64,000 bases of DNA from Candidatus Multivoradales bacterium (GCA_965248925.1 CBDFLE010000006.1:1760001-1824000), one strand, 5' to 3'. Shown: positions 4,866 through 17,133, counted from the stretch's first letter. The notes: generated by a model not told the origin, from the sequence alone. Numbers and translations: made by a program.

Positions 4866-5032
4866 TGCCTATTCCGACGAAACTGACCAGCCATTCCGAT
4901 CGAAACCGACCACTTGTCGGAGCGAAGCGACGCTGGCGCTCTCCTCAGTTGTAGGTGTCCACTTTCGCTGTAGCTGGAGGCCTCCTTCCGGCTCTTCTTC
5001 TTGATTGATTGTATTCAAATAACCCGTCGTCG

Positions 5033-5140
5033 GGGCTGTGCGTAGCTGTGGGAAACGCAGGTAGGGGGCAGGGGGGCGTTTTCCAAGCGGTTGTGGGAAT
5101 CGCAGAGCGATTTCCACAACCGCGGCAGCTTCCACAGTCC
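5033..5140 (-). other. multi-stem structured element downstream of istB
   Basis: Closing stems plus two hairpins: GCGGTTGTGGAAATCGC/GCGATTCCCACAACCGC and TGGAAAACGC/GCGTTTCCCA. Confidence 0.65.
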
Positions 5141-5219
5141 ATCTTGGGTCGGGTCCGGATCGGGCCGCAGGCCCGCTGATGGGTCAGGATCGGCGATCGC
5201 TTCAGCATGCTCTTGGATC

Positions 5220-5984
5220 TCACCTTGCCTCTCGCTGGGCGGCCTTGCGAATACCGCCGGCTCTCTTCGCCCGCATGGAGTCACCGTCCACCGCGAGCTT
5301 GTAGGCGCCGTGGACAATGCGATCGAGGATGGCGTCGGCCAAGGTCGGATCGCCGATGACCTCGTACCAGCTCTCAACCGGTAGCTGGGAGGTCACCAGC
5401 GTGGAGCGGTTGCCGTAGCGGTCCTCAAGAATCTCGAGCAGGTCGCGCCGCTCGCTGGCCCCGATCGGCGCCAGCCCCCAGTCGTCGAGGATGAGCAGGT
5501 CTGTGCGAGCATAGCTCTTGAGCAGCTTCTCGTAGCTACCATCACCCCGCGCGATGGCGAGCTGGCGAAACAGCCTCGGCACCCGCAGGTACAAAGCGGT
5601 GTAACCCTCCCGACATGCCTTGTGCGCGAAGGCGCAGGCGAGAAAGGTCTTGCCCACCCCGGCCTTGCCGGTGATCAGCACGTTGAGATGCTCGGCGATC
5701 CACTGGCACGAGGCCAGGCGCAGGATCTGGCCTTTGTCCAGGCCCCTCTTGGCTCGCCAGTCGATGTCTTCGATGGCCGCCTGCTCGCGCAGCTTGGCTT
5801 TTCGCAACCGCGCTATCAAGCGGCGGCTGGATCGCTCGGTCGCTTCGCGCTCGACCAGCAGCCCGAGGCGCTCTTCGAAGGAGAGCTCTGAGACATCGAC
5901 CATCGACAGCTGCTCCTCAAAGGCTTTGGCCATACCGTGGAGCTTGAGCGCGGCGAGTTGATCGAGCGTCGCGTGCCTCAGCAT
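5220..5984 (-). CDS. istB: IS21 ATP-binding helper protein IstB
   Basis: MLRHATLDQLAALKLHGM; Walker A GKAGVGKT; Walker B LLILDDWG; ADAILDRIVH. Confidence 0.95.
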   Translation of the reverse strand: MLRHATLDQLAALKLHGMAKAFEEQLSMVDVSELSFEERLGLLVEREATERSSRRLIARLRKAKLREQAAIEDIDWRAKRGLDKGQILRLASCQWIAEHLNVLITGKAGVGKTFLACAFAHKACREGYTALYLRVPRLFRQLAIARGDGSYEKLLKSYARTDLLILDDWGLAPIGASERRDLLEILEDRYGNRSTLVTSQLPVESWYEVIGDPTLADAILDRIVHGAYKLAVDGDSMRAKRAGGIRKAAQREAR

Positions 5985-7552
5985 GGCGGCGTCTCCTCGC
6001 GGCGCGCGGCACTGTAGTAGCTGGCGCCGCGGACGTTGCGGTGCTCGATCGGCGCCGTCACTTCGGTGGGCTCGGGCGCTGCTTGCTGGTCCAGGCCGCT
6101 CTTCAGGATCGACTTCACGCTCTTGTAGGACAGGCCGTGAATGGCGAGCGCGCGGCGGCACGCAGCCTCCAAACGATTGGCACCATAGGTCTTGCCCAGG
6201 CGCATCAGCCCCAGACACGAGCGAAAGCCGTGCTGAGGATGGGAGCGGTTAAGCATGATGGTCTCCACCAGTTCGGCCGTCGCCTGGCCTGTTTTCGCCG
6301 CCCAGCTGATCAGCCGTGTCGGTGTCCACTCCAGGTACGCCTGGTGCGCTTTGGGCATGTGCTCGCTCTGGGTCGTGTGCCGACCCCGACACCGATTGCG
6401 ACGATGAGCAGCCACACGCTTGCCGCGATCGAGCACCTCCACCAGTTGCGCCGTCGCCCGCAGATCGAGCTGCTTCTTGATCAGCTGGTACGGCACACTG
6501 TAATAGTGGCCCTCGAACTCGACGTGGTAGTCCGGGGCAACGCGTACCTTCTTCCATTCGGCAAGCTCGTAGGGCTGGAGCGGCAAAGCACCCAGAGCAG
6601 GACGATCGACCTGCTCGAACAGCGCTCGGCGCGAGACGCCCAACACCTTCAGCGGACGGTCGTTAAGCTCGACCAGAAGCTTCGCGATGCTCTCGTTGAG
6701 CTCTCGCAGGCTGAAGAACTGCTGGTTACGCAGCCGGGCCAGAATCCAGCGCTCCACTTGCAATACACCATTTTCGACCTTCGCCTTGTCTTGGGGCTTC
6801 CTCACCCGCGCCGGCACCACCGCCACGCCGTAGTGCTCGGCCAACTCCGCGTAGGTGCGATTGATCTCCGGCTCGTAGCGGCACGGGCTGGTCACGCCGC
6901 TCTTCAGATTGTCCGGCACCACCAGCTCGCTCACCCCGCCCAGAGCCGCGAAGGTCCGCACATGAGAGCCGATCCAGTCCTCCAGGCCCTGGCTCCACGT
7001 TGATTCGGCATAGGTGTAGTTGCTCGCCCCCAGCACCGCCACGAAGATCTGCGCTTCGCGCGCTTTGCCAGTCGCCGGGTCGATCACCCTCACGGTCTGT
7101 CCGGCATAGTCGACGAACAGCTTCTCGCCCGCCCGGTAGGCTTGGCGCAGGCACACATCCAGGCGCCCTTCCCAGATCCGGTACAGCTGACAGAAGCGGC
7201 TGAGACCGTAGCCGTCAGGATGGTCCTCCCGGTACTCCTGCCACAGCAGCGACAGGGTTACGCACTTCTTCTTCAGCTCGCCATGCACCTTGGTCCAGTC
7301 GGGCAAGGCTCGCTGACCACCCCTCCGAAGCGGCTGCGGCCGAGGGTACAGGCGTTGCTCCAGCTCAGCGTCGCTCAAAGCTGCTACTTGCTCCCAGCTC
7401 AGGCCTTCAACCTTGGCTCGCAGCAGGTAGTTGCACACCGTCACGTGGCCCAGCCGAACCGACCGTCCGATCTGGCGGTGCGACAGGCCATGCTGCCATT
7501 TCAGTCTCAGTACCTCGCGTATCTTGCGCATCGATGTCCTCACTCTCGGCAT
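5978..7552 (-). CDS. istA: IS21 transposase IstA
   Basis: MRKIREVLRL HTH; FVDYAG, VPDNLKS, KAKVENGV DDE motifs. Confidence 0.95.
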   Translation of the reverse strand: MPRVRTSMRKIREVLRLKWQHGLSHRQIGRSVRLGHVTVCNYLLRAKVEGLSWEQVAALSDAELEQRLYPRPQPLRRGGQRALPDWTKVHGELKKKCVTLSLLWQEYREDHPDGYGLSRFCQLYRIWEGRLDVCLRQAYRAGEKLFVDYAGQTVRVIDPATGKAREAQIFVAVLGASNYTYAESTWSQGLEDWIGSHVRTFAALGGVSELVVPDNLKSGVTSPCRYEPEINRTYAELAEHYGVAVVPARVRKPQDKAKVENGVLQVERWILARLRNQQFFSLRELNESIAKLLVELNDRPLKVLGVSRRALFEQVDRPALGALPLQPYELAEWKKVRVAPDYHVEFEGHYYSVPYQLIKKQLDLRATAQLVEVLDRGKRVAAHRRNRCRGRHTTQSEHMPKAHQAYLEWTPTRLISWAAKTGQATAELVETIMLNRSHPQHGFRSCLGLMRLGKTYGANRLEAACRRALAIHGLSYKSVKSILKSGLDQQAAPEPTEVTAPIEHRNVRGASYYSAARREETPPC

Positions 7553-7628
7553 CCAATCCTCCTTTCAAGGAGGCTGGAATACCCCAATTGTGAGGAGCGC
7601 GCTACCGTCGAACTCCGCCGTGGCCAGG

Positions 7629-7766
7629 ATTCCGATCCAATCTGACCACCCATTCCGATCGACCCGGAAAAGTGGTCACTTTCGATCGGAATCGATGGTC
7701 AGATTCCGTTGGAATCACTGGTCACTTTCAATCGGAATCGGTGGTCGGTTTCCGTCGGTGCAGGCA
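7629..7766. repeat. IS21 sub-terminal transposase-binding repeats
   Basis: Four tandem ~22-bp units TGGTCA/G-N-GGAATC plus inverted copies (GATTCCGATC..TGACCA). Confidence 0.8.
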
Positions 7767-8149
7767 ACAGCTTCGATGCAATCGCTAATGTTCGACTCTC
7801 GCCCGTACGTCATGCCTTTGAAGAAGTCCAAATTGTAGACATCGAAAACCCCAGGACCCATGACGTACTTGTAGATGTCTTGCTGCACTAGCTCCACCGG
7901 TATTCCAAAATTTCCCAGGTCGATCGCAAGACGCATCGCATCCGCAATCTTCGGATCGTTCTCAACCGCAACCACCGAAGAGATAAGCGCAGACCACGCT
8001 CGGACATCGAGGAACTCGATGCTCGGAAGTCCACAGTACCTAAGCCCTGATTTTTTTACCGTAACCATGAACTCCCGCAGTAGGCGCCTGTCTCGACGTC
8101 GAAGTTCCCGTTTCTCTTTCGAGTCCGGAAATGTGTTAGTCAGATACAT
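7767..8149 (-). pseudogene. methyltransferase-fold hypothetical protein, C-terminally truncated by IS21
   Basis: ATG 8149 overlaps the upstream stop; LRYCGLPS..FLDV, VVAVENDP, QQDI, FDVYNLDFF resemble Rossmann SAM-binding strands. Confidence 0.55.
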
Positions 8150-8841
8150 CCGCCCATCTTCCAATCGCCTCCTCGACACGCTTGGCAACCTGCACAAAGT
8201 CCTCGTGCCCATCGCCGAGCACGTTCTCTATGGCCCAGAGAACGGTGGAAACGAGTTCTTCTACATTCAACTTTGAGACCGACGCTGTCTTCGCATCGTC
8301 GTCGCTTTTCTCTCCGGCACCCGGCCCATCGCCAAGCTCTTGCGTACTGCATTCACCGCCCGTATCCTCCACCTCGCTTCCAGAGTTACCCAGGTCAACA
8401 CCGTCTCCATTTCCCGTATCGATCTTCTCACTTGCTCCACTTGAAACTGGCTGAGATACGACTATCGACTTCAGCGACTTCAATGCTTTCTTACGTCGTG
8501 ACTCAAAATCCTTGTTCTTAAGAAGTTCAACCAAAATTCTTTTCTGCTCGCTCGCCGCGGGCCCCTTCCTCTTGCTAGAAATTGCTCCTAAACTAGTGAT
8601 CTGTTCTGTTCGCCGCTTAGTCAGTTCCACCTCATCGACAGACACCCCGGCCTTGTATGCCTCTGCAAAGTCCTCAGCCTTCTCTAGCTTTTTCTTGAGA
8701 CTATTGAAATCACTGCGCCCGCGAGCCTCAAGCAGGCGTTCGTGATAGAACCCCCTCAATTCAGCGATCAACTCACGCGACTCGTCTGTCTGTTCCAGGG
8801 CATCGCGGGGTGTATCTGGACGGATCGATGGGTTTGTAATA

Positions 8842-10393
8842 CCTAAACTGAGCGGTTCTGAGCTTGAAGCAGAATAACCGAGGGGTTGATTCGGGGCGCC
8901 GAATGTGCGTTTTGCCAGAGAACGGGAAGTTTGAGTTGGTCCCACAGCACTTGCGTAACCTTGAGCGCTATCGCCCCGGCGTGGCAGACGATCTTTCCGG
9001 CCTGGTCGAAGAGCCGCCGACGGACCGTGGTCGGGTACGATTCCAAAGGGATCACTTCGGCGCTAACATCTTCCTTGAACGCCTCGAAGAGGAAGAACGC
9101 AACCAGGATGGTGAAGTAGTACGCCATGTTGGGGCCAAAACGCAGGAAAGGCAACCGCTCGCTGGCGAAGTCTTTCAGCTCGCGATGAACCAGCTCATCC
9201 GCTCCACGTCGGTGGTAAAAGCCGATCACCTTGGCTGCATCCCCGCGGTTCGCGTACCCCGCCTCGCGCAGCAACCCGTCAATGTGTTGTCCTCGCCCCA
9301 GGTTGGTATAGATCACCGTGTCCGGCCGGGCGAACGCCAGGAGTCGCTGGCGATCCTTGTAGAGCGGCTGGCAGAAGATCGCCCTTCGAGTCTGGCTCCA
9401 AGTCCCGCGTTGATCCTCGAATTCGAAGAAGCGCCACTGCTGGGGCTCTCGGGCGAGGAGCTTCCATTCCTCTTCTGGGAGTTCCTGGGCCCGGTCACGA
9501 ATTCCCTGGTACAGCTTTCCTCCGCAGACGTATCCGATCTTCAGTTCTTCACAGGCGACGAAGATCGCCTGGTCGAAAAATCCACTGTCCATGCGCAGCA
9601 TAATCGGCACATCGGCCTGGAGGTGAGTACGGATGGCGGATACCGCTTGGCGAATCATCTTGACGGCGTCGTTGCCGTAGTTGCAGTGCCGGTCACCTCG
9701 ACGGAAGACCGCATCGATGATGAATCGCCGCCAAGTCAGCTGGAGAGGCTGGAACCCCTTGACTTTCTTGTAGGTGGGCTGGACCCCATGCCGCTTGATA
9801 GCATCATCGTTGTCCATGACCATCGAATCGAGGCCCAGGACAACGACGTCAGGTGCTGCAAGGCGCAGCCGCCACACAAACAGCTCGCGCAGAAGCTTGC
9901 GAAAGAAGTGAATGACAGGGAGTGAGAAGGCTTTGAAGAACCGCTTTACAGAGTGGGAAGACAGCAACTGATGCTGGTGGCATTCGACGATGCTGGCGTA
10001 GGCCGGATCCTTCTTCAGCGCATCGAAGTAGTTGAGGTGACGACTCGTTCCATCGAGCAAGAAGAGGAAAACCTGTTGGAGATGTCGACGATCGGCAGAC
10101 CCTTGCTGCTCTTGCGCAGTCGGCCGAATAGATGCTGCAGAAGCGGTTGGATACAAATGCTGTCCAGGTATTGCACGAAAAGGTTCAGCCCTGCTCGGCC
10201 AGTCAGAGAATCGGGGGTTACCTCAATCTTGGTGATGGCGTGCAGGCTCTTCGGGGCCGTGGTAGACTTCATCTCGATCTCCCACCTGTTGGGTTGTGGC
10301 GAGTCACACCGCCAATTACTGCTAACGGTTTCAATGTCGGCAGTTTAGCACAGCAGGTGGGGGATTATTGTGGTTTAAACCGCTCAATCTAGG
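8842..10393 (-). mobile_element. IS1380-family insertion sequence
   Basis: IRs CCTAAACTGAGCGGTT / CCTAGATTGAGCGGTT (14/16); 5-bp target duplication TAATA (8837-8841, 10394-10398). Confidence 0.9.
8843..10272 (-). pseudogene. IS1380 transposase with frameshift near 10080
   Basis: The N-terminus (..SLTGRAGL..) lies in ORF 10015..10272. The remainder (LGLDSMV, GFQPL, LRMDSGF, YHRRGADELVHRELK) is in another frame. Confidence 0.85.
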
Positions 10394-11137
10394 TAATATG
10401 GACTTCGCCACAGAACCAGTCAAGCTTGAGCATTGCAGGCAGCTCACTATGCCTCCCAATGCCCCACTGATAGCCATTCTTGGCCGAATAGGCATCGACT
10501 CTCCGTACAGCGATATTACTCTCACGTATCCGGAACCCGCGACGCTCCACTTTGGGTACCTTCTCCTCCTTCAGTTGCTTGTCTTTTGTTGCACACCACC
10601 ACACCCGGGCCAGCTCCACCCCAGAAGAACTTTTTAAGATTGTTGTTCTCGGTTCAACCGTGCGCTCGGAAAGCGCCTCAGCGCTTCAACCTCTCCATCA
10701 GGCGAGACTATTCTAATCGAAAACCCCTGATACCCAGAAAAACCGTTTAGGACTCTCCGAACTCTCTCTCCAAACTCAAAACCGGGATCGATCCTGCACG
10801 GGAAATCTGTACAAGCCATGCGGACGAGTTCATCCCGAGTTAGAAGGAGTTAATCATCGACGCCACAAAGGGTAACTTGAGTGAAGTGCCGACTTCTTTC
10901 ATCCTCTTCAGTCTCGATCTTGTAGTGAGGATCGATCACTTCTTTAATGTGACTCTGCGTATCGATGGATCTACGAATGCCCGCAAAATCAATTGTCAGC
11001 TGATAGAGACGCTTATCTCCCTTGGTAGTTGACTTAATGATCAGCTTGTCACAAGCTTCGTACCCAGCCCAGATTCCAGACCTCCTGACCTACCCCTCCT
11101 AACCCTCTGAAAACACAGGACCGCCCCTCAGAGGTGG

Positions 11138-11815
11138 TGCGGACCCAAAACTGTCCGCTTTTTTCGGTGCCGAGGCATGATCGAGCATGGCACTGACGAG
11201 CGAGCACACCGTCCTGTTCCCAGACCACGCCGGGGTCCCCGATGGGGTTGTGGTGATCAACGACCGCTGCCGCCTCCAGCAGAGGGGCGGCTATCGGGTG
11301 GTGGTGGTCAGCGGCATGCCGCTCGCTCACTTCGCTGCCGGCGACAGGACAGGCGAGGCCCACGCGATGGTGAGTCTCGTTGAATTGGGCTGGGCACAGC
11401 AACGCGAGGTGGCCCTTGCGTTCGCTTGTGATGTGCGGACTGTGCGCCGGAATCAGCGCCGCTTCGAAGAAGGTGGGCTGGCTGCTCTGGGCCGGCCGCG
11501 CGGTTTTCCCCGGGGTCAGTCTCGGGTAGCGCAGGGCCGCCTGGACGCGGTCAACGGCTGGAAGGCCGAGGGTGTGTCGAATCGCGAGATTGGCCGGCGG
11601 CTGGGCATCGATGAGAAGGCCGTTCGCAAGCTCGCCAAGCGCCTGGGCTGGAAAGAGCGGTCGGTAGTGCAGATGACGATGCCCTTCGAGAGTGCGGACC
11701 CAAAACTGTCCGCCTCTGATGAGCAGCAGGTCGACGGCCCCCTGAAAACTGCGGATCTTGCGCTCGACGCTGAGGGTGGCGGTGACCCAGCGGCTGCGGA
11801 CCCAAAACTGTCCGC
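11138..11815. repeat. three identical 21-bp palindromic repeats TGCGGACCCAAAACTGTCCGC
   Basis: Copies at 11138-11158 (upstream of the ORF), 11693-11713 and 11795-11815 (in frame, ADPKLSA); internal symmetry GCGGAC-N8-GTCCGC. Confidence 0.95.
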
Positions 11816-13580
11816 TTCTGCGTCCGAGCAAGATCAGGTTCCCCTCTCGCTGGACCTCGATCCAGCGGATCGCGCCAGCGATCGGCTGCTGGCGAGGCTG
11901 GGATTCCTCGATGATGCGGCGCCGATCTTCGGAGCGGCGACCCAGCTACCGGGCGCCGGTGCTCTGCTGGCGATTCCCGCCCTGGTGGACAGCGGCGTGC
12001 TCTCCATCGCGCAGGAGCTGTACGGCAGCATCGGGCCGGCCTTCTATGGGCTGCGCACCACTCTGGTAACCCTGCTGCTGATGGCACTGTTGCGGGTCAA
12101 GCGACCCGAAGGGCTCAAGGAGCGCTCACCCCGGCATTTGGGTCAGCTTCTCGGGCTCGACCGAGCGCCGGAAGTGAAAACCTTGCGCAACAAGCTCGCT
12201 CGGCTGGCCGCGCATGGCCTGGCCGCGGATCTCGGTCGCGCCCTCGCTCAGCGCCGGGTCGCCACCAGGGGCCATGCCATGGGCTTCCTCTACGTGGACG
12301 GGCATGTGCGCGCCTACCACGGTGGCCGAGAGATTCCCAAGACACACGTAGCGCGGATGCGGATCGCGATGCCGGCCACCACCGACTACTGGGTCAACGA
12401 TGCTGAGAGCGAGCCTCTCTTCGTGGTCCCCACCGAGGCCAACAAGGGGCTTGCGACGATGCTTCCCCTCATTCTCGAAGAGGTACGAAAGCTACTCGGA
12501 GACCGGCGAGTCACCGTCGTCTTCGACCGTGGGGGTTGGAGCCCGAAGCTGTTTGCGAAGCTCATCGCCAAGAAGTTCGACATCCTCACATACCGAAAGG
12601 CCCCCTTTCGTCCGGTGCCGTTGAGCAAGTTCGGGCAGATCAAGGACACGATCCACGGGCGGAAGCTCGAGTACCTCCTCGCCGATCAGCGTATCTACCT
12701 CGAGTATGGCCCGAGGAAGAAGCGCAAGCGGCTGTACCTGCGCCAGGTCACCCGCCTCTGCGACAACGGCCACCAGACGTCCATCATCACCTCCCGCCGC
12801 GACCTCTCCACACTCGAGGTCGCCTACCGCATGTTCGATCGTTGGAGGCAAGAGAACTTCTTCAAATACCTGCGCGAAGAATTCGCACTCGATGCCCTGG
12901 TGGACTATGGCACCGAGCCAGCGGACGCCGCCCGCGATGTGCCGAATCCCGAGCGCGGCAAGATCAATGCAGAGCTGCGCAAAGCTCACGCACATCTCGA
13001 GCAGCTTCGGGCCCACATCGGGATCGCTGCTCTTGAAAACCGCGAGGATCGGCGGCGCACGATGCGCGGATTCAAGATCGCCAACGCCGCCATCTCCGCC
13101 AGGGTCCGGGCAGCGATAGAGCAGATCACCGAACTCGAGAACCAGCGCGCGACCCTCCCCGTCCGCGTCCCCGTCCAAGAGGTCGTCGAAGCGGATGTCA
13201 TCAAGCTGTCCGTCGAGCGCAAGCACCTCACCGATATTCTCAAGATGGTCGCCTACCAGGCCGAAGGTGATCTTCTCCGGCTCCTATCACCCCACTACCG
13301 CCGCACCGAGCAGGAGGGACGCACCCTGATCCAAAGCGCTTTCGCGGCCGGCGGCGATATGGAGGTTACCGACACCGTGCTGCTCCTTTCCATCGACCCG
13401 CTCAGCTCTCCCCACAAGACGGCGGCGATCGCCGCCGTCTGCGAAGAACTCAACGCTACCGCCACCCACTTCCCCGGCACCGAGCTACGGATGCGGTTCG
13501 CGATCAAGAAGGCGCCACCCCGGAGCCTGGCCTTCCCAGGGCCTCGGAACACCTCCGGAGAGGCTCAACCGGACATTTGA
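11187..13580 (+). CDS. transposase (two N-terminal HTHs plus DDE-type domain)
   Basis: HTHs QREVALAFACDVRTVRR and SNREIGRRLGIDEKAVRK; YVDGHVRAY, VFDRGG, RWRQENFFKY motifs; fills the element. Confidence 0.88.
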   Translation: MALTSEHTVLFPDHAGVPDGVVVINDRCRLQQRGGYRVVVVSGMPLAHFAAGDRTGEAHAMVSLVELGWAQQREVALAFACDVRTVRRNQRRFEEGGLAALGRPRGFPRGQSRVAQGRLDAVNGWKAEGVSNREIGRRLGIDEKAVRKLAKRLGWKERSVVQMTMPFESADPKLSASDEQQVDGPLKTADLALDAEGGGDPAAADPKLSASASEQDQVPLSLDLDPADRASDRLLARLGFLDDAAPIFGAATQLPGAGALLAIPALVDSGVLSIAQELYGSIGPAFYGLRTTLVTLLLMALLRVKRPEGLKERSPRHLGQLLGLDRAPEVKTLRNKLARLAAHGLAADLGRALAQRRVATRGHAMGFLYVDGHVRAYHGGREIPKTHVARMRIAMPATTDYWVNDAESEPLFVVPTEANKGLATMLPLILEEVRKLLGDRRVTVVFDRGGWSPKLFAKLIAKKFDILTYRKAPFRPVPLSKFGQIKDTIHGRKLEYLLADQRIYLEYGPRKKRKRLYLRQVTRLCDNGHQTSIITSRRDLSTLEVAYRMFDRWRQENFFKYLREEFALDALVDYGTEPADAARDVPNPERGKINAELRKAHAHLEQLRAHIGIAALENREDRRRTMRGFKIANAAISARVRAAIEQITELENQRATLPVRVPVQEVVEADVIKLSVERKHLTDILKMVAYQAEGDLLRLLSPHYRRTEQEGRTLIQSAFAAGGDMEVTDTVLLLSIDPLSSPHKTAAIAAVCEELNATATHFPGTELRMRFAIKKAPPRSLAFPGPRNTSGEAQPDI

Positions 13581-13932
13581 GAAAAAGGGTATGTCAGGAG
13601 TTCTGGATTCCGATCCCCCTAAACCCAGCCATCTCATCCTCGAGCGCCTTAGCTGACACAGCTATCCTCTTGGCCGCTCGAATACCCTCCAAGTCCATTC
13701 CAGCCCCCAGATCTGTAACCTGGAGAAGGGACTTTTCCGGGTAGGCAGTGATCGTGATTTGGGGATCTTTTGGTGGATCATCTAGCCTCAGATAGGCATC
13801 CCGAGCGTTCTGAACGTACTCACGAAGAACTGCCTCCGACGTGTAAATGCCTTTCGCGAGGTTATCTAGCAACTGACTCCCGATGTCATGCCAGTCGATC
13901 TCGTCCTCAATATGCTTCCATGCCATGTCGTT

Positions 13933-15382
13933 CTATTCCCTCCAACGATGAGTGCTCGTCCATTGCGCTGCGCGGACATCGATCCGAAGTACACCTACTG
14001 AAACGCCGACCCCGTGGGACACGACGTAAGCCCGCCCTCTCCCGCAGTGACCGACAAGCCGTGTCACTTCATTAGTGTTGTTGTTGCTCGCTTTTCTGCT
14101 CAGTCGGCGCGCCAGTCGGCCTGTCGCATCGTCAACCTGGAAGATCACCTGAGTAGCCGAGTTGCTGAATACAAGGTCATCGAAATCCTGCGGCTGTTGT
14201 GACGCGAGCAGCAGGCCTACACCGAACTTGCGGCCTTCGCGGAGCAGTCTTTCGACCGGCGATTCGTGACCAATGGCGAGCCGATGGGCTTCGTCGAGAA
14301 CCACATAGCTACAAAGTTTTGCAGGGCCTCTTGCCTCGATGAACCCGAGGAAATTCCAGAGGAGAAATTAGGCAGTAGCTCTCGCCACCGAATGCTCGAG
14401 CCCTGCGAGCTGAATGACCCATGGGGAGCCCCCTTGGAGGAATCCGCCCCAGTCCAGAGCCAAGCCACGCCGAGTAAAAACTTCGAAAACAAATAGAGTC
14501 GAGATGTGCGAGGCTGCCATACCTGCCGCGCGGTGGCCAGGGTTGTCGCGATCCCCAGCGCGAAGCTCCAAAGCCGTTCGGAGCATTGAGAAGGGGGGAG
14601 TTGGCCGGCTCCAGGTTGACGGCTCTTTCCGGCGAATTCCTGCATTCTCGAAACAGTCGAGGACAGCATCACGGATCTGTGAATGTTGCTGAACACCTAG
14701 TTTTGGATAAACCCGTTGGAAGGTATCGGCGACGCGCTGTGCCGCATTCACTGGGCCCCGGACATCGGAGTCAAACAACGCCAGCGGATTGATGGCGACA
14801 GCTTGGCTATTCACTTCAATCTGCTGAAATCGTACATGGGAAGTAACCTCGGGTGGGAGTTCGCTCTCCGCGAAGCCCTGCCCGAAGTCGAATACTAACG
14901 CGGGCAGCCCGCGCTGGGCCAACTCGGCGATCAAGCTCGTCAACAAATAGGTCTTTCCAAAACCGCTAGCGCCGCAAACAACCATGTGGGGATTCGGTGC
15001 GCCGGACGATGGCTCGGGGAACCACCACGCACGAGTCTCAGATCCTACAACCGTGCCCAAAGGGATAGCCGTCCGTCCTTGCGGCTCTTGATCGGGTGGA
15101 AGCAGATGGGGCGCAGAGGGAGCTGCTACCCGCTCGACCCCAGGCCACGTCTGTGAAACCGAGGGGCTGAGCTGCGGTGAGTGTGCTAGTGATGGAGTGA
15201 ACTCCGGTGGGCTCGACGGCAACGCAGCGTTTTCGTACGAGCCCATTGTTACGTGGGCAGCAATCGCGGCGACCTGCCCCTTGGTAACCCCCAGCCGGTC
15301 TGCGATCTCACCCTTTTGGGGAGCCAGCTGCCAACAGCTCTAGGATCTGTTCCCGCTGCATCTTGTTCAGTCGCGGCACCAT
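13933..15382 (-). pseudogene. HTH + HerA/FtsK-superfamily (DndH/DptH C-terminal-like) ATPase with frameshift and nonsense codon
   Basis: MVPRLNKMQREQILELLAAG/KGEIADRLGVTKGQVAAI (frameshift ~15318); NPHMVVCGASGFGKT, INPL, LGVQQ; TAA at 14368-14370 (ATA*FLLWN); VLDEAH, LREGRKFGVGLLLASQ. Confidence 0.82.
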
Positions 15383-15678
15383 TCATCTCTCCGTCGGACT
15401 CTCGTGATAGCAGCCCCGCATTTGCTCCGGTGGGCCGAAACTGTGCCTCGGCAGCTGTCGCTCCTACGGTGTGAGGATCCGGCCGCTCCGTGGAAGGTTG
15501 CGCCCCAGGGGCCTAGAGTACCCCATCGAGGGCGCTACACTCGACTCTGGAACTGCCTGGCTTGCCACCCCCTGAACCTCGCACCCGATTTTAGCGGAAG
15601 GCTTCCCTCTGGGAACCAAGGAGGCCAGCCAGGCGACTCAGCCCAAGGTCTTGGCCCATCTTTTCCCGCTATTCAGTC

Positions 15679-16049
15679 CTAGAAGCTGATAGGTAGATAG
15701 ATCATCCGGTTGATGTACTCGGTGGGTTCCGAAACACTGTAGATCAAGAGCAGCTCATCGCGGGTGTCCTTGATGGTCATCGACGGATTGAGAATGAAGA
15801 TTCCCGGCATCTGCCGTCCAGCGCTGGCGTGATCTTGGAGATGGACAGGCATCGACGCTCGGTTGTTCGTTACCAACACGAAAAAGTTGGCTTCACACCA
15901 GACCAGAATCTCCGCGTCCAGGGTCCCGTGTCCGGGCGCTCCAGGGTCGCCGTCCACCCAGACGGTCGTATCTGGGGATTGGCCTGCTCCAATGCCCTGC
16001 GAAGACGAGGATTGACGTTCTCGTCCAGCAGGTACCTGATCTCGTTCAC
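15679..16049 (-). pseudogene. DUF5615 PIN-like toxin, frameshifted
   Basis: IRYLLDENVNPRL.. then frameshift ~15975 to ..VWVDGDPGAP..LDAEILVWCE..VLVTNNR. Confidence 0.8.
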
Positions 16050-16384
16050 GGAGATCCCGTTACCGGCGCTCGTCGAGCGTTACGTTCCTGCCGAATCATG
16101 CGCAGCCGAAGCATCGGTGGTGTGGAGTTCTGGGCCTGCCGGGCGCGCATCTTCTGGCCGTGCTCAAGCCACCGTTCCAGATAGGCGTTGACTTCTTTCT
16201 GGTTGTGGAGGTAGTACGTAACCGTCGCGTAGACCTTCTCTCGATCGAGGGAAGGATAGCTGCGGGTGATCGTCTCGGGGGATTAACTGCGATGGATGAA
16301 ATCGTAGAGGACGGAGTCGATACCGATTCGCGTCCATTTGATCCTAATATCTTCCGCGGTGAAGAAGTCGAAGTCAAGCTGCAT
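16046..16384 (-). pseudogene. DUF433 antitoxin with in-frame TAA at 16283-16285
   Basis: Not in the ORF track; MQLDFDFFTAEDIRIKWTRIGIDSVLYDFIHRS*SPETITRSYPSLDREKVYATVTYYLHN. Confidence 0.8.
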
Positions 16385-16555
16385 GGCTGGCTCCCGCCAC
16401 TTAGGGCGTCATCATGCGCGCAGCCCAAGCGGCACTGCAATCCTACTGTATCCTCTGGTGCCGTAGAGTCAGAAACGGAGTCCCAGCTCCCTGCTTGAAG
16501 AAATCCACAAAGAGATTTAGAATCGGCTTCGAATTCAGCCCTTCGAGGAACTCTC

Positions 16556-16834
16556 ATGAGGCCCCTACAGATCTCCCAGGACATCGTCCCCCTGGCTCGT
16601 TTCAAGACCCAAGCGTCGCTCATCCTCCGCCAGTTACACCAGGAGCAGCGGCCCGTCGTGATCACCCAGAACGGTCAGCCAGCCGCTGTGCTGATCACCC
16701 CGGAGGAGTTCGACCGCTTGCTGGAGCATGACCGCTTCCTGGCCGCGATTCAGGTAGGACTGGCGGATTCAGAGGCCGACAGGCTGATCGACGACGAAGC
16801 GGTGGCGGCGGAACTCGGTATTCTCGACTCGTGA
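16556..16834 (+). CDS. Phd/YefM family antitoxin
   Basis: DIVPLARFK..RPVVITQNGQPAAVLITPEEFD. Confidence 0.9.
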   Translation: MRPLQISQDIVPLARFKTQASLILRQLHQEQRPVVITQNGQPAAVLITPEEFDRLLEHDRFLAAIQVGLADSEADRLIDDEAVAAELGILDS

Positions 16835-17133
16835 AGCTTCTTTGGACCGAACGATCGCGGGCCGATTTACTCGAAATCCGTCGCTTCATCGCCCGCGACA
16901 AACCTGGCGCAGCAAGCGATTGGCTGGCTAGGCTCCGGCAGCGAGCGCTACAGGCCGCGGAGCTGCCATCCTCGGGCCGCAGTGTTCCTGAGCTTGGCCG
17001 TGAGGACATTCGAGAGATCCTGGAACGTGACTATCGCATCGTCTATCGCGTCTTGGAGGATGAGATTCACGTTCTGACGGTCTTCGAAGGACACCAGAGA
17101 CTGCGGCTGGAAGAGCTGGATGACTCCGAGTAG
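16831..17133 (+). CDS. RelE/ParE family toxin
   Basis: WTERSRADLLEI..PSSGRSVPE..IREI..YRIVYRV..VLTVFEG; 4-nt overlap with the antitoxin. Confidence 0.9.
   Translation: MKLLWTERSRADLLEIRRFIARDKPGAASDWLARLRQRALQAAELPSSGRSVPELGREDIREILERDYRIVYRVLEDEIHVLTVFEGHQRLRLEELDDSE

Follow-up and report, generated by a model that had tools for sequence, protein, structure and literature searches.

A decayed three-gene remnant of a candidate HerA/FtsK-anchored, modification-linked island in a Candidatus Multivoradales bacterium

A 64,000-nucleotide stretch of the genome of a Candidatus Multivoradales bacterium (GCA_965248925.1 CBDFLE010000006.1:1760001-1824000), referred to here as the window, carries on its minus strand, at 7767-15382, the remains of three co-directional and tightly spaced genes. 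They specify a helix-turn-helix (HTH) plus HerA/FtsK ATPase of the DndH C-terminal type, an Hsp90-like GHKL ATPase and a methyltransferase-fold protein. A first-pass annotation, made from the sequence alone, had regarded this trio as a hidden operon that would be restored by removing two insertion sequences (IS). Four more lesions and a truncation contradict this view: all three genes are pseudogenes, broken by two IS insertions, two nonsense codons, two frameshifts and an IS21-associated deletion. On balance, we consider it probable that the locus is what decay has left of an anti-invader island that is HerA/FtsK-anchored, modification-linked and so far undescribed, and of which the trio forms the core.

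Gene remnants and insertion elements at the locus

The ATPase pseudogene (13933..15382, minus strand) was recognized from its translation, from Pfam and PADLOC matches and by comparison with the closest intact relative, a metagenome locus designated L055. If intact, it would encode an HTH and a HerA/FtsK-class ATPase of the DndH/DptH C-terminal type, ~482 aa long. This agrees in identity and length with the ~480-aa HTH-P-loop ATPase previously annotated, but the frame is not continuous. One extra base (+1 frameshift) in a C/A run at 15314-15321 splits the HTH start, which reads MVPRLNKMQREQILELLAAGSPKG up to a stop, from the main frame. In addition, an in-frame TAA at 14368-14370 occupies the position of the Glu of TEFLLWN, present in all 15 aligned relatives and encoded by GAG in L055. 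The protein database entry for the locus is limited to a 292-aa fragment (P0003).

The close coupling of the three genes was read correctly from the outset. The GHKL gene starts 6 nt past the ATPase stop (ATG at 13926, stop at 13933-13935), and its own stop, TAA at 8136-8138, overlaps by 14 nt the third open reading frame (ORF), the ATG of which is at 8149. The GHKL gene persists as three minus-strand pieces. The N-terminal one (13606..13926, 107 codons) contains the Bergerat motifs, matches HATPase_c_3 at 7.5e-06, is 80% identical to L055 and ends at the first insertion element, IS#1, its last bases being one copy of the GATTC duplication (13606-13610). The middle piece (10394..11076), established by three-frame translation and homologue alignment, contains an in-frame TAA at 10850-10852, where L055 has CCG, and a -1 frameshift caused by a 1-nt deletion near 10668, where L055 has one base more. 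The C-terminal piece (8136..8841), 49% identical to L055, comprises a coiled-coil/low-complexity region and a terminal helical bundle. Of the third gene (7767..8149, minus strand), which has a class I methyltransferase fold, the first 127 of ~275 codons are left; its homology stops at 7767, where it is cut by an IS21-family element.

The borders of the two elements that interrupt the GHKL gene, 11077-13605 and 8842-10393, had been placed exactly. IS#1 (11077..13605, plus strand, 2529 bp), identified from its genome copies and Pfam, encodes a 797-aa Transposase_29-family protein (11187-13580), has inverted ends CAGA(C/A)CTCCTGAC and is flanked by the target duplication GATTC at 11072-11076 and 13606-13610. 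Counting this one, 26 full-length copies occur in the genome, with at least 99.76% identity and matching end to end, and contig depth over the element is ~20x that of unique sequence. In two of four sequencing runs, a contig skips 120 bases inside the element (11117-11238); a shorter variant probably exists among the copies. IS#2 (8842..10393, minus strand, 1552 bp), recognized in the same way, encodes a DDE_Tnp_1_4 transposase (8843-10156), is present in three full-length genome copies including itself and is flanked by TAATA at 8837-8841 and 10394-10398. Excision of both elements, together with one duplication each, gives ...AGFRGIGIWAG... and ...GEVHITNPSIRPD..., and both joins are gap-free relative to intact homologues. 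The ~566-aa GHKL protein reconstructed in the first-pass annotation thus stands as far as its joins are concerned, but its frame is not open, owing to the TAA and the deletion in the middle piece. No read contig spans an IS junction with at least 31 letters on each side, so that the junctions are supported by the assembly and by the copies elsewhere in the genome.

All four point lesions are present in contigs independently assembled from four public runs of one sample, which show 0 differences from the window over 10365-11098 (734 bp) and 13583-15700. They are therefore not artefacts of this assembly, unless one allows that the sample could be the very one from which it was made. An interpretation of the in-frame TAA codons as recoding was rejected: relatives have sense codons at these positions, and TAA also terminates the GHKL gene itself. 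Given the four point lesions, the two IS insertions and the truncation, the function of the intact island is impossible in this genome.

The element that truncates the third gene (4866..7766, minus strand) contains istA (5978-7552) and istB (5220-6218), with matches to IstB_IS21 (3.5e-76), rve and Mu-transpos_C_2; these IstA and IstB proteins and its multicopy nature (21 full genome copies including itself) assign it to the IS21 family. Its flanks, CAGAC and ACAGC, form no target duplication, whereas other genome copies do show duplications. Since a duplication is lacking and the homology of the third gene ends exactly at 7767, the junction is a deletion or rearrangement and not a simple insertion. 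Judged from this junction, the element marks the deletion that took the rest of the island, as had been suspected when genes were proposed to have been lost downstream. The genome as a whole is heavily colonized by IS, with 26 Transposase_29 and 21 IS21 copies, which points to a recent IS burst.

The remnant is richer in AT than its surroundings, as annotated, with a GC content of 0.545 compared to 0.628 and 0.615 in the flanks. In 40 genomes from the same family or order, the search for the ATPase family gave no true match, and matches at E <= 1e-40 occur in 3 of 401 genomes sampled from the phylum, a count that includes the genome itself and one 1835-aa DndH-like protein. Horizontal acquisition of the block, already proposed in the first-pass annotation, is supported by the low GC together with this patchy distribution. 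No second copy of any island gene family is present in the 7.98-Mb genome, with the exception of two DUF5131 homologues (C6:4579573-4580421 and C6:2927768-2928673). These are 59% and 41% identical to an island-linked DUF5131 protein of a relative (L023) and are not linked to other island genes.

Beyond the ATPase end of the remnant, similarity between L055 and the window, which spans 15395 down to 7767, stops just before two small overlapping minus-strand ORFs of 92 and 59 aa (15679-16049). Neither has a Pfam match at 0.001, and their identification as a DUF5615-type toxin-antitoxin pair was dropped. A relaxed hidden Markov model (HMM) search of 15301-17000 for upstream remnants of the island families c2, c4 and c9 gave a best E of 1.8. 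The toxin-antitoxin neighbourhood noted for the block does exist: an intact Phd/YefM antitoxin gene (5.4e-15) and a ParE toxin gene (1.1e-16), overlapping stop to start, are located at 16556-17133 on the plus strand, 1.2 kb from the remnant, with the two small ORFs in between.

Protein families of the trio

The N-terminal HTH of the ATPase precedes a P-loop domain with Walker A (GASGFGKT) and Walker B (VVLDEAH) motifs. Above the Pfam cut-offs it matches TrwB_AAD_bind (best, 4.2e-07), HerA_C and FtsK_SpoIIIE; in PADLOC it matches DndH at 1.3e-39, over profile positions 1336-1681 of 1715, and mad8 at 2.8e-15. For comparison with PDB profiles we used a family alignment of intact relatives (A1), from which the broken gene of the window was excluded; the C-terminal fragment of DptH (7es4, 4.2e-23) was matched first, then anti-phage HerA structures at 2.4e-11 and weaker. 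Motifs and core profile matches place the protein in the HerA/FtsK class of P-loop ATPases, broken though its gene is. Its homologues gave 415 matches among 8000 candidates scored; they are mostly 445-490 aa long and abundant in metagenomes, and many family members are named 'DptH' by JGI. Among 87 pattern matches in viral contigs, no relative was confirmed. A tblastn search of plasmids returned no close relative: all 51 records are below 60% identity (at most 30.8% among the matches listed), one of them covers 80% of the query, and they belong to other DUF87, type IV coupling protein or DptH families.

The GHKL protein of the window displays the motifs REYVQNA.DA, D.G.GM and GFRGIG, which are invariant in its homologues. 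Together with the middle/transducer domain, these Bergerat motifs (ExxxNxxD, DxGxG and GxxGxG) assign it to the GHKL ATPases. Members of the family are 525-571 aa long. The top Foldseek matches of a modelled intact homologue are full-length HtpG, Hsp90 and TRAP1 (6.2e-15), and the PDB profile matches are the N-domains of HtpG and TRAP1. In the model, N and middle domains resembling those of Hsp90/HtpG lead into a long stretch of helices with a bundle at the end (helices 338-443 and 503-553). The ATPase domains of the two other GHKL families of the island, described below, are MORC/MutL-like. Profile alignment with hhalign detected weak similarity between families c1a and c5 (3.9e-4) and yielded no output for c1a/c1b, c1b/c1L and c5/c1b.

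The third gene was confirmed to specify a class I methyltransferase fold (Rossmann-like, seven-stranded alpha/beta) that is Trm1-like. The family keeps E61 and an NLD(F/Y)(F/Y)GG motif, features that are compatible with a putative methyltransferase activity. Families c8 and c14 were classed as methyltransferase-like from their position and from a weak full-length hhalign alignment of c6 with c8 (E = 0.011). A predicted complex between the GHKL (A5) and methyltransferase-like (A2) proteins scored 0.01 against a mark of 0.32, which speaks neither for nor against binding. The domain calls of the first-pass annotation are thus all borne out, from the DndH and DptH matches of the ATPase to the GHKL and methyltransferase folds of its two neighbours.

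The island in relatives

A scan of one genome per species yielded 48 loci, whose ORFs were clustered and mapped with HMMs built from the clusters. The counts below cover 44 bacterial loci, the archaeal L045-L048, with weak partial ATPase matches, being left out; 31 is the number of loci with at least 7 kb downstream, and 41 that of loci with room for the gene counted. A GHKL gene lies no more than 1.8 kb downstream of the ATPase gene (c0) in 35 of 41 loci, and L018 and L041 also carry one according to the HMM map, missed by the script owing to coordinates. The methyltransferase-like gene comes next in 31 of 37. At least 19 loci, and L055 besides, preserve the order ATPase, GHKL, methyltransferase-like, and the expected co-occurrence of the three homologues in many genomes was therefore found.

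Contrary to what had been supposed, the trio is not self-contained. Of the 31 loci, 29 contain genes for B12-type radical S-adenosylmethionine (SAM) enzymes, either c3 or two c7 paralogues, and 27 an additional GHKL gene. A DUF5131 gene (14 of 31), a DGQHR protein (c9; 5 of 31) and a small upstream protein (27 of 42) are found less regularly; weak Pfam matches and a reading of the alignment suggest that the small protein is KOW-like and ribbon-helix-helix-like. In relatives, the ATPase gene is followed by one or two pairs of GHKL and methyltransferase-like genes, two in tandem in planctomycete loci; the B12-type radical SAM genes, one or two in number, are coupled to a gene for a further GHKL ATPase. 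Judged from these neighbourhoods, an island of 6-9 genes has the trio as its core; it is represented by the 44 bacterial loci and one metagenome contig, in Planctomycetota, Acidobacteriota, Verrucomicrobiota, Gemmatimonadota and other phyla. One intact copy is located in a cultured and harmless soil bacterium, Granulicella sp. dw_53 (NZ_JAAVUR010000005.1, at about 140.0-149.5 kb; locus L026, 7680-17079), where the genes run DUF5131, small protein, ATPase, GHKL, methyltransferase-like, GHKL, radical SAM and DGQHR.

The metagenome contig, L055, was the single locus obtained from a metagenome scan and has 72-75% nucleotide identity to the window. Its ATPase, GHKL and methyltransferase-like genes are followed on the opposite strand by a second methyltransferase-like and a second GHKL gene, two radical SAM genes and a long GHKL gene; the small protein and DUF5131 are absent. 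Since L055 carries these genes and the 7.98-Mb genome does not, the window has lost about half of its third gene and five further genes.

Among the island enzymes, the radical SAM proteins have a B12-binding domain, those of c3 keep the CxxxCxxC motif, and c3 and c7 are mutually homologous (3.4e-14). Their closest NCBIfam matches, all far below the cut-offs, are PhpK-type P-methyltransferases, BchE and HpnJ/HpnR. DUF5131 is a radical-SAM-like protein with three Cys kept and matches the PADLOC candidates PDC-M30B and PDC-M41B. The c9 protein passes the DGQHR model TIGR03187 (114.9 bits, cut-off 58.85) and matches DpdB (1.4e-18) and the Pfam model of DndB (8.8e-07).

The islands also vary in composition. 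In one locus, two radical SAM genes are followed by a TmtA-like 828-aa GHKL gene (L014:16317-18800; 4.2e-88), where other loci have a 660-aa GHKL gene, a hint that Tiamat-type proteins and the island swap GHKL modules. Extra pairs of GHKL and methyltransferase-like genes lie beside the main island in two others (L020:5189-7609 and L033:16354-18770), and the pair would seem to duplicate and move as a unit. An optional gene of ~470 aa is inserted between the ATPase and GHKL genes at L012:10353-11750 and L015:3348-4766; its product, c24, is very weakly similar to spore-photoproduct lyase (E = 0.02, far below the cut-off). A further optional gene, c23 of 491 aa, matched nothing. In two metagenome-assembled genomes (L039 and L043), the island genes are broken into many frames, which may reflect either decay as in the window or assembly indel errors.

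Comparison with known systems and possible functions

The nearest characterized relatives of the ATPase, DndH and MAD8, are parts of multi-gene anti-phage systems according to the accessible text of PMC13662399 and PMC10853773. The window protein shares its HerA/FtsK-type domain with DndH/DptH of DndFGH/DptFGH. DndH, however, is a ~1700-aa protein with helicase-C, target-recognition, inactive methylase and restriction-endonuclease domains, as outlined in the accessible text of PMC10853773, whereas the protein here (460-490 aa) has the HTH and ATPase only. PADLOC, run on the window pieces and on ten partner proteins encoded by intact loci, found no DndF or DndG. The methylation-associated MADS (mad1-mad8) resembles the island as a large modification-based multi-gene system with ATPase modules, as far as the accessible text of PMC13662399 describes it, and the window ATPase matches mad8. 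MADS, by contrast, uses an m6A methyltransferase, kinases and OLD-like nucleases, and its eight-gene set is not present here, the partner proteins matching no mad model at E <= 0.01.

The island can also be compared with the HerA/FtsK capture systems, in which DndH-like HerA/FtsK and HTH domains have been proposed to bring invader DNA to an effector (PMC10853773, accessible text). Both combine a DndH-like translocase and an HTH with a mobile, defence-associated multi-gene neighbourhood, and some capture versions are joined to a DNA-modification module, as is proposed for the island, according to the accessible text of PMC10853773 and of the BRC preprint (bioRxiv 10.1101/2025.10.09.681413). The partners, however, differ. 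These sources describe as partners a D5-type helicase; Orc/Cdc6 accompanied by a restriction endonuclease and a winged HTH; or PglZ, BrxC-like, STAND, TGT and GNAT proteins. The island instead pairs its ATPase with GHKL ATPases, proteins of methyltransferase fold and radical SAM enzymes. It has the HTH and HerA/FtsK part of capture systems, which PMC10853773 defines as including an active endonuclease effector as well. An endonuclease domain was recognized in no conserved island protein with Pfam, NCBIfam, PADLOC or PDB profiles, which assigned nothing to several regions, namely c23, c24 and the C-terminal halves of c5 and c1L. GHKL, Hsp90, MORC and DUF5131 are absent from the main text of PMC10853773, and GHKL, Hsp90, MORC, 'radical SAM' and DGQHR from the main text of the bioRxiv preprint.

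The remaining components have counterparts of their own. Antiphage GHL/GHKL ATPases (Tiamat TmtA, Hsp90-like and MORC-type) have in common with the window family the Bergerat fold and the Hsp90-like N plus middle architecture. TmtA matches the N-terminal piece of the window GHKL weakly (residues 17-106, best 1.3e-4), and the intact GHKL homologue has no PADLOC match at 0.01. Tiamat is defined by DUF3684 and C-terminal PD-(D/E)xK nuclease regions, according to the accessible text of 10.64898/2026.09.30.754977; the window family lacks both and, unlike Tiamat, is always accompanied by partner genes. Trm1-type methyltransferases are 10-11% identical in sequence to the island protein, whose weak matches are confined to the uncharacterized PP_RS20740 family (1.4e-06, below the cut-off). 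Five methyltransferase-like representatives do not match the TcmP model at E <= 5 and DUF5131 does not lie beside the window remnant, which distinguishes the locus from the TcmP-DUF5131 pair. The c9 protein, absent from the window, resembles DndB and DpdB, DGQHR proteins that both belong to DNA-modification systems, but remains below the DpdB and Dnd equivalog cut-offs. The trio matches no named system, as first reported, and neither the trio nor the island is covered by a model set in PADLOC v2, NCBIfam 20 or Pfam, where only DUF5131 is listed (PDC-M30 and PDC-M41). A description of the gene set was not found in the literature searched; the supplementary data of PMC10853773 and of the BREX (bacteriophage exclusion) preprint could list such neighbourhoods.

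The flanks of the islands were scanned for 136 of 176 candidate proteins, leaving out ORFs below 150 aa and three loci with no confirmed core (L017, L031 and L042). These 136 proteins match 114 PADLOC families at E <= 1e-10, the best 25 of which include MkoA/B/C, cyclases of the cyclic-oligonucleotide-based CBASS, a phospholipase effector, capP, PDC-S68, PDC-S39, PDC-S11 and SoFic; four carry phage-integrase domains (Pfam). MkoA (5.8e-227) adjoins the island in Granulicella sp. dw_53, and PDC-S68 (E = 0) adjoins it in L023. Mokosh, CBASS and PDC-S68 genes in the flanks are in line with the association with defence islands raised in the first-pass annotation, but these counts lack a matched background. 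From this genomic context we infer a defence function.

Based on the above data, we propose that the intact island may be a 'capture'-type anti-invader system anchored by HerA/FtsK and combined with a nucleic-acid modification module. The HTH-HerA/FtsK ring would bind and pump DNA. GHKL dimers would serve as clamps gated by ATP, each paired with its cognate subunit of methyltransferase fold, and the radical SAM enzymes, with DGQHR where present, would install or control the mark that separates self from foreign DNA. A more specific and rather doubtful version of this mechanism is that the island writes an unknown radical-SAM-dependent DNA mark, read by three kinds of GHKL clamp and the DndH-like motor to discriminate self from invader. 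Such a mark could be a cobalamin-dependent C- or P-methylation, made with DUF5131 and Trm1-like subunits.

Several points weigh against our proposal. Searches with Pfam, NCBIfam, PADLOC and PDB profiles recognized no nuclease or effector domain in the conserved island proteins. B12-type radical SAM enzymes are otherwise familiar chiefly from the biosynthesis of metabolites. None of the methyltransferase-like proteins reaches the cut-off of a curated methyltransferase model; their canonical glycine-rich SAM loop is missing (YCGLPS instead), and they may be non-catalytic. Since DUF5131, DGQHR and the small protein are optional, the boundaries of 'the system' are blurred. The defence-gene counts of the flanks stand without a matched background, and the families named are the best 25 of 114. 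Lastly, the four runs that reproduce the point lesions represent one sample, which may be the assembly's own source.

The lack of a recognizable nuclease would fit an island that modifies or repairs nucleic acids, as an epigenetic module for the host or a mobile element without a restriction arm, its ATPases loading or remodelling the substrate. Several enzymes of a modification type (B12-type radical SAM, DUF5131, the Trm1-like fold and DGQHR) and the faint likeness of c24 to spore-photoproduct lyase (E = 0.02, below the cut-off) are in line with this explanation. We nevertheless judge it unlikely, since the nearest characterized relatives of the ATPase sit in the restriction-type systems DndFGH and MADS and the island adjoins Mokosh, CBASS and PDC-S68 genes and integrases. 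Its rarity, its patchiness and its ready decay (in the window, possibly also in L039 and L043) are moreover typical of accessory conflict genes and not of housekeeping ones. The biosynthetic NCBIfam neighbours of the radical SAM proteins, far below cut-offs as they are, could alternatively indicate a secondary-metabolite cluster or one for ribosomally synthesized and post-translationally modified peptides, with B12-type radical SAM methylases and a methyltransferase at its centre and the ATPases as accessories. This seems quite improbable for an island anchored by an HTH plus HerA/FtsK DNA-translocase-type ATPase related to DndH, which in some loci includes the DNA-associated DGQHR protein and whose neighbourhood has no conserved precursor peptide, transporter or scaffold-biosynthesis gene.

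The ATPase by itself invites a different explanation, in which an integrative mobile element would use it as a motor for conjugation or DNA segregation (type IV coupling protein or FtsK-like) and carry its neighbours as cargo. Its best Pfam match is indeed TrwB_AAD_bind (4.2e-07), weak similarities to TraC, VirB4 and TraD exist, and four of the 136 flanking proteins have integrase domains. The TrwB, TraC, VirB4 and TraD matches are confined to the P-loop region, however; no relaxase or type IV secretion genes are conserved alongside, close relatives were found neither on plasmids (best 30.8% among the matches listed) nor in viral contigs, and the constant companions of the gene encode GHKL, methyltransferase-like and radical SAM proteins. 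We regard such a role as very improbable. Least tenable is a complete, self-contained three-gene defence operon, merely masked by the two IS and functional once these are removed. The exact rejoining of the frame at both junctions, the translational coupling (6-nt gap and 14-nt overlap) and the same order in at least 19 loci plus L055 would all be expected from it. Yet two nonsense codons and two frameshifts survive IS removal, the third gene is cut after 127 of ~275 codons, the trio is almost never alone in relatives (radical SAM in 29 and a further GHKL in 27 of 31) and L055 continues with five genes that are absent here. The reading frames already refute a functional operon of this kind in the window.

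Our best reading is thus that the island is a further HerA/FtsK-anchored, modification-linked conflict system, of which the copy in the window is a decayed, non-functional member. The locus itself is ordinary, a dead accessory locus that illustrates how IS expansion erases such islands. Its value is as a pointer to a rare multi-phylum island that combines a DndH-type motor, up to three GHKL families, methyltransferase folds and two kinds of radical SAM enzyme. Since an intact copy is present in the cultured Granulicella sp. dw_53, the idea is directly testable. Should the island prove to provide immunity, the 'HerA/FtsK capture' theme would gain a new set of partners, and a new radical-SAM nucleic-acid modification could come to light; were the radical-SAM mark also real, both its epigenetic chemistry and this class of immunity based on modification would be new.

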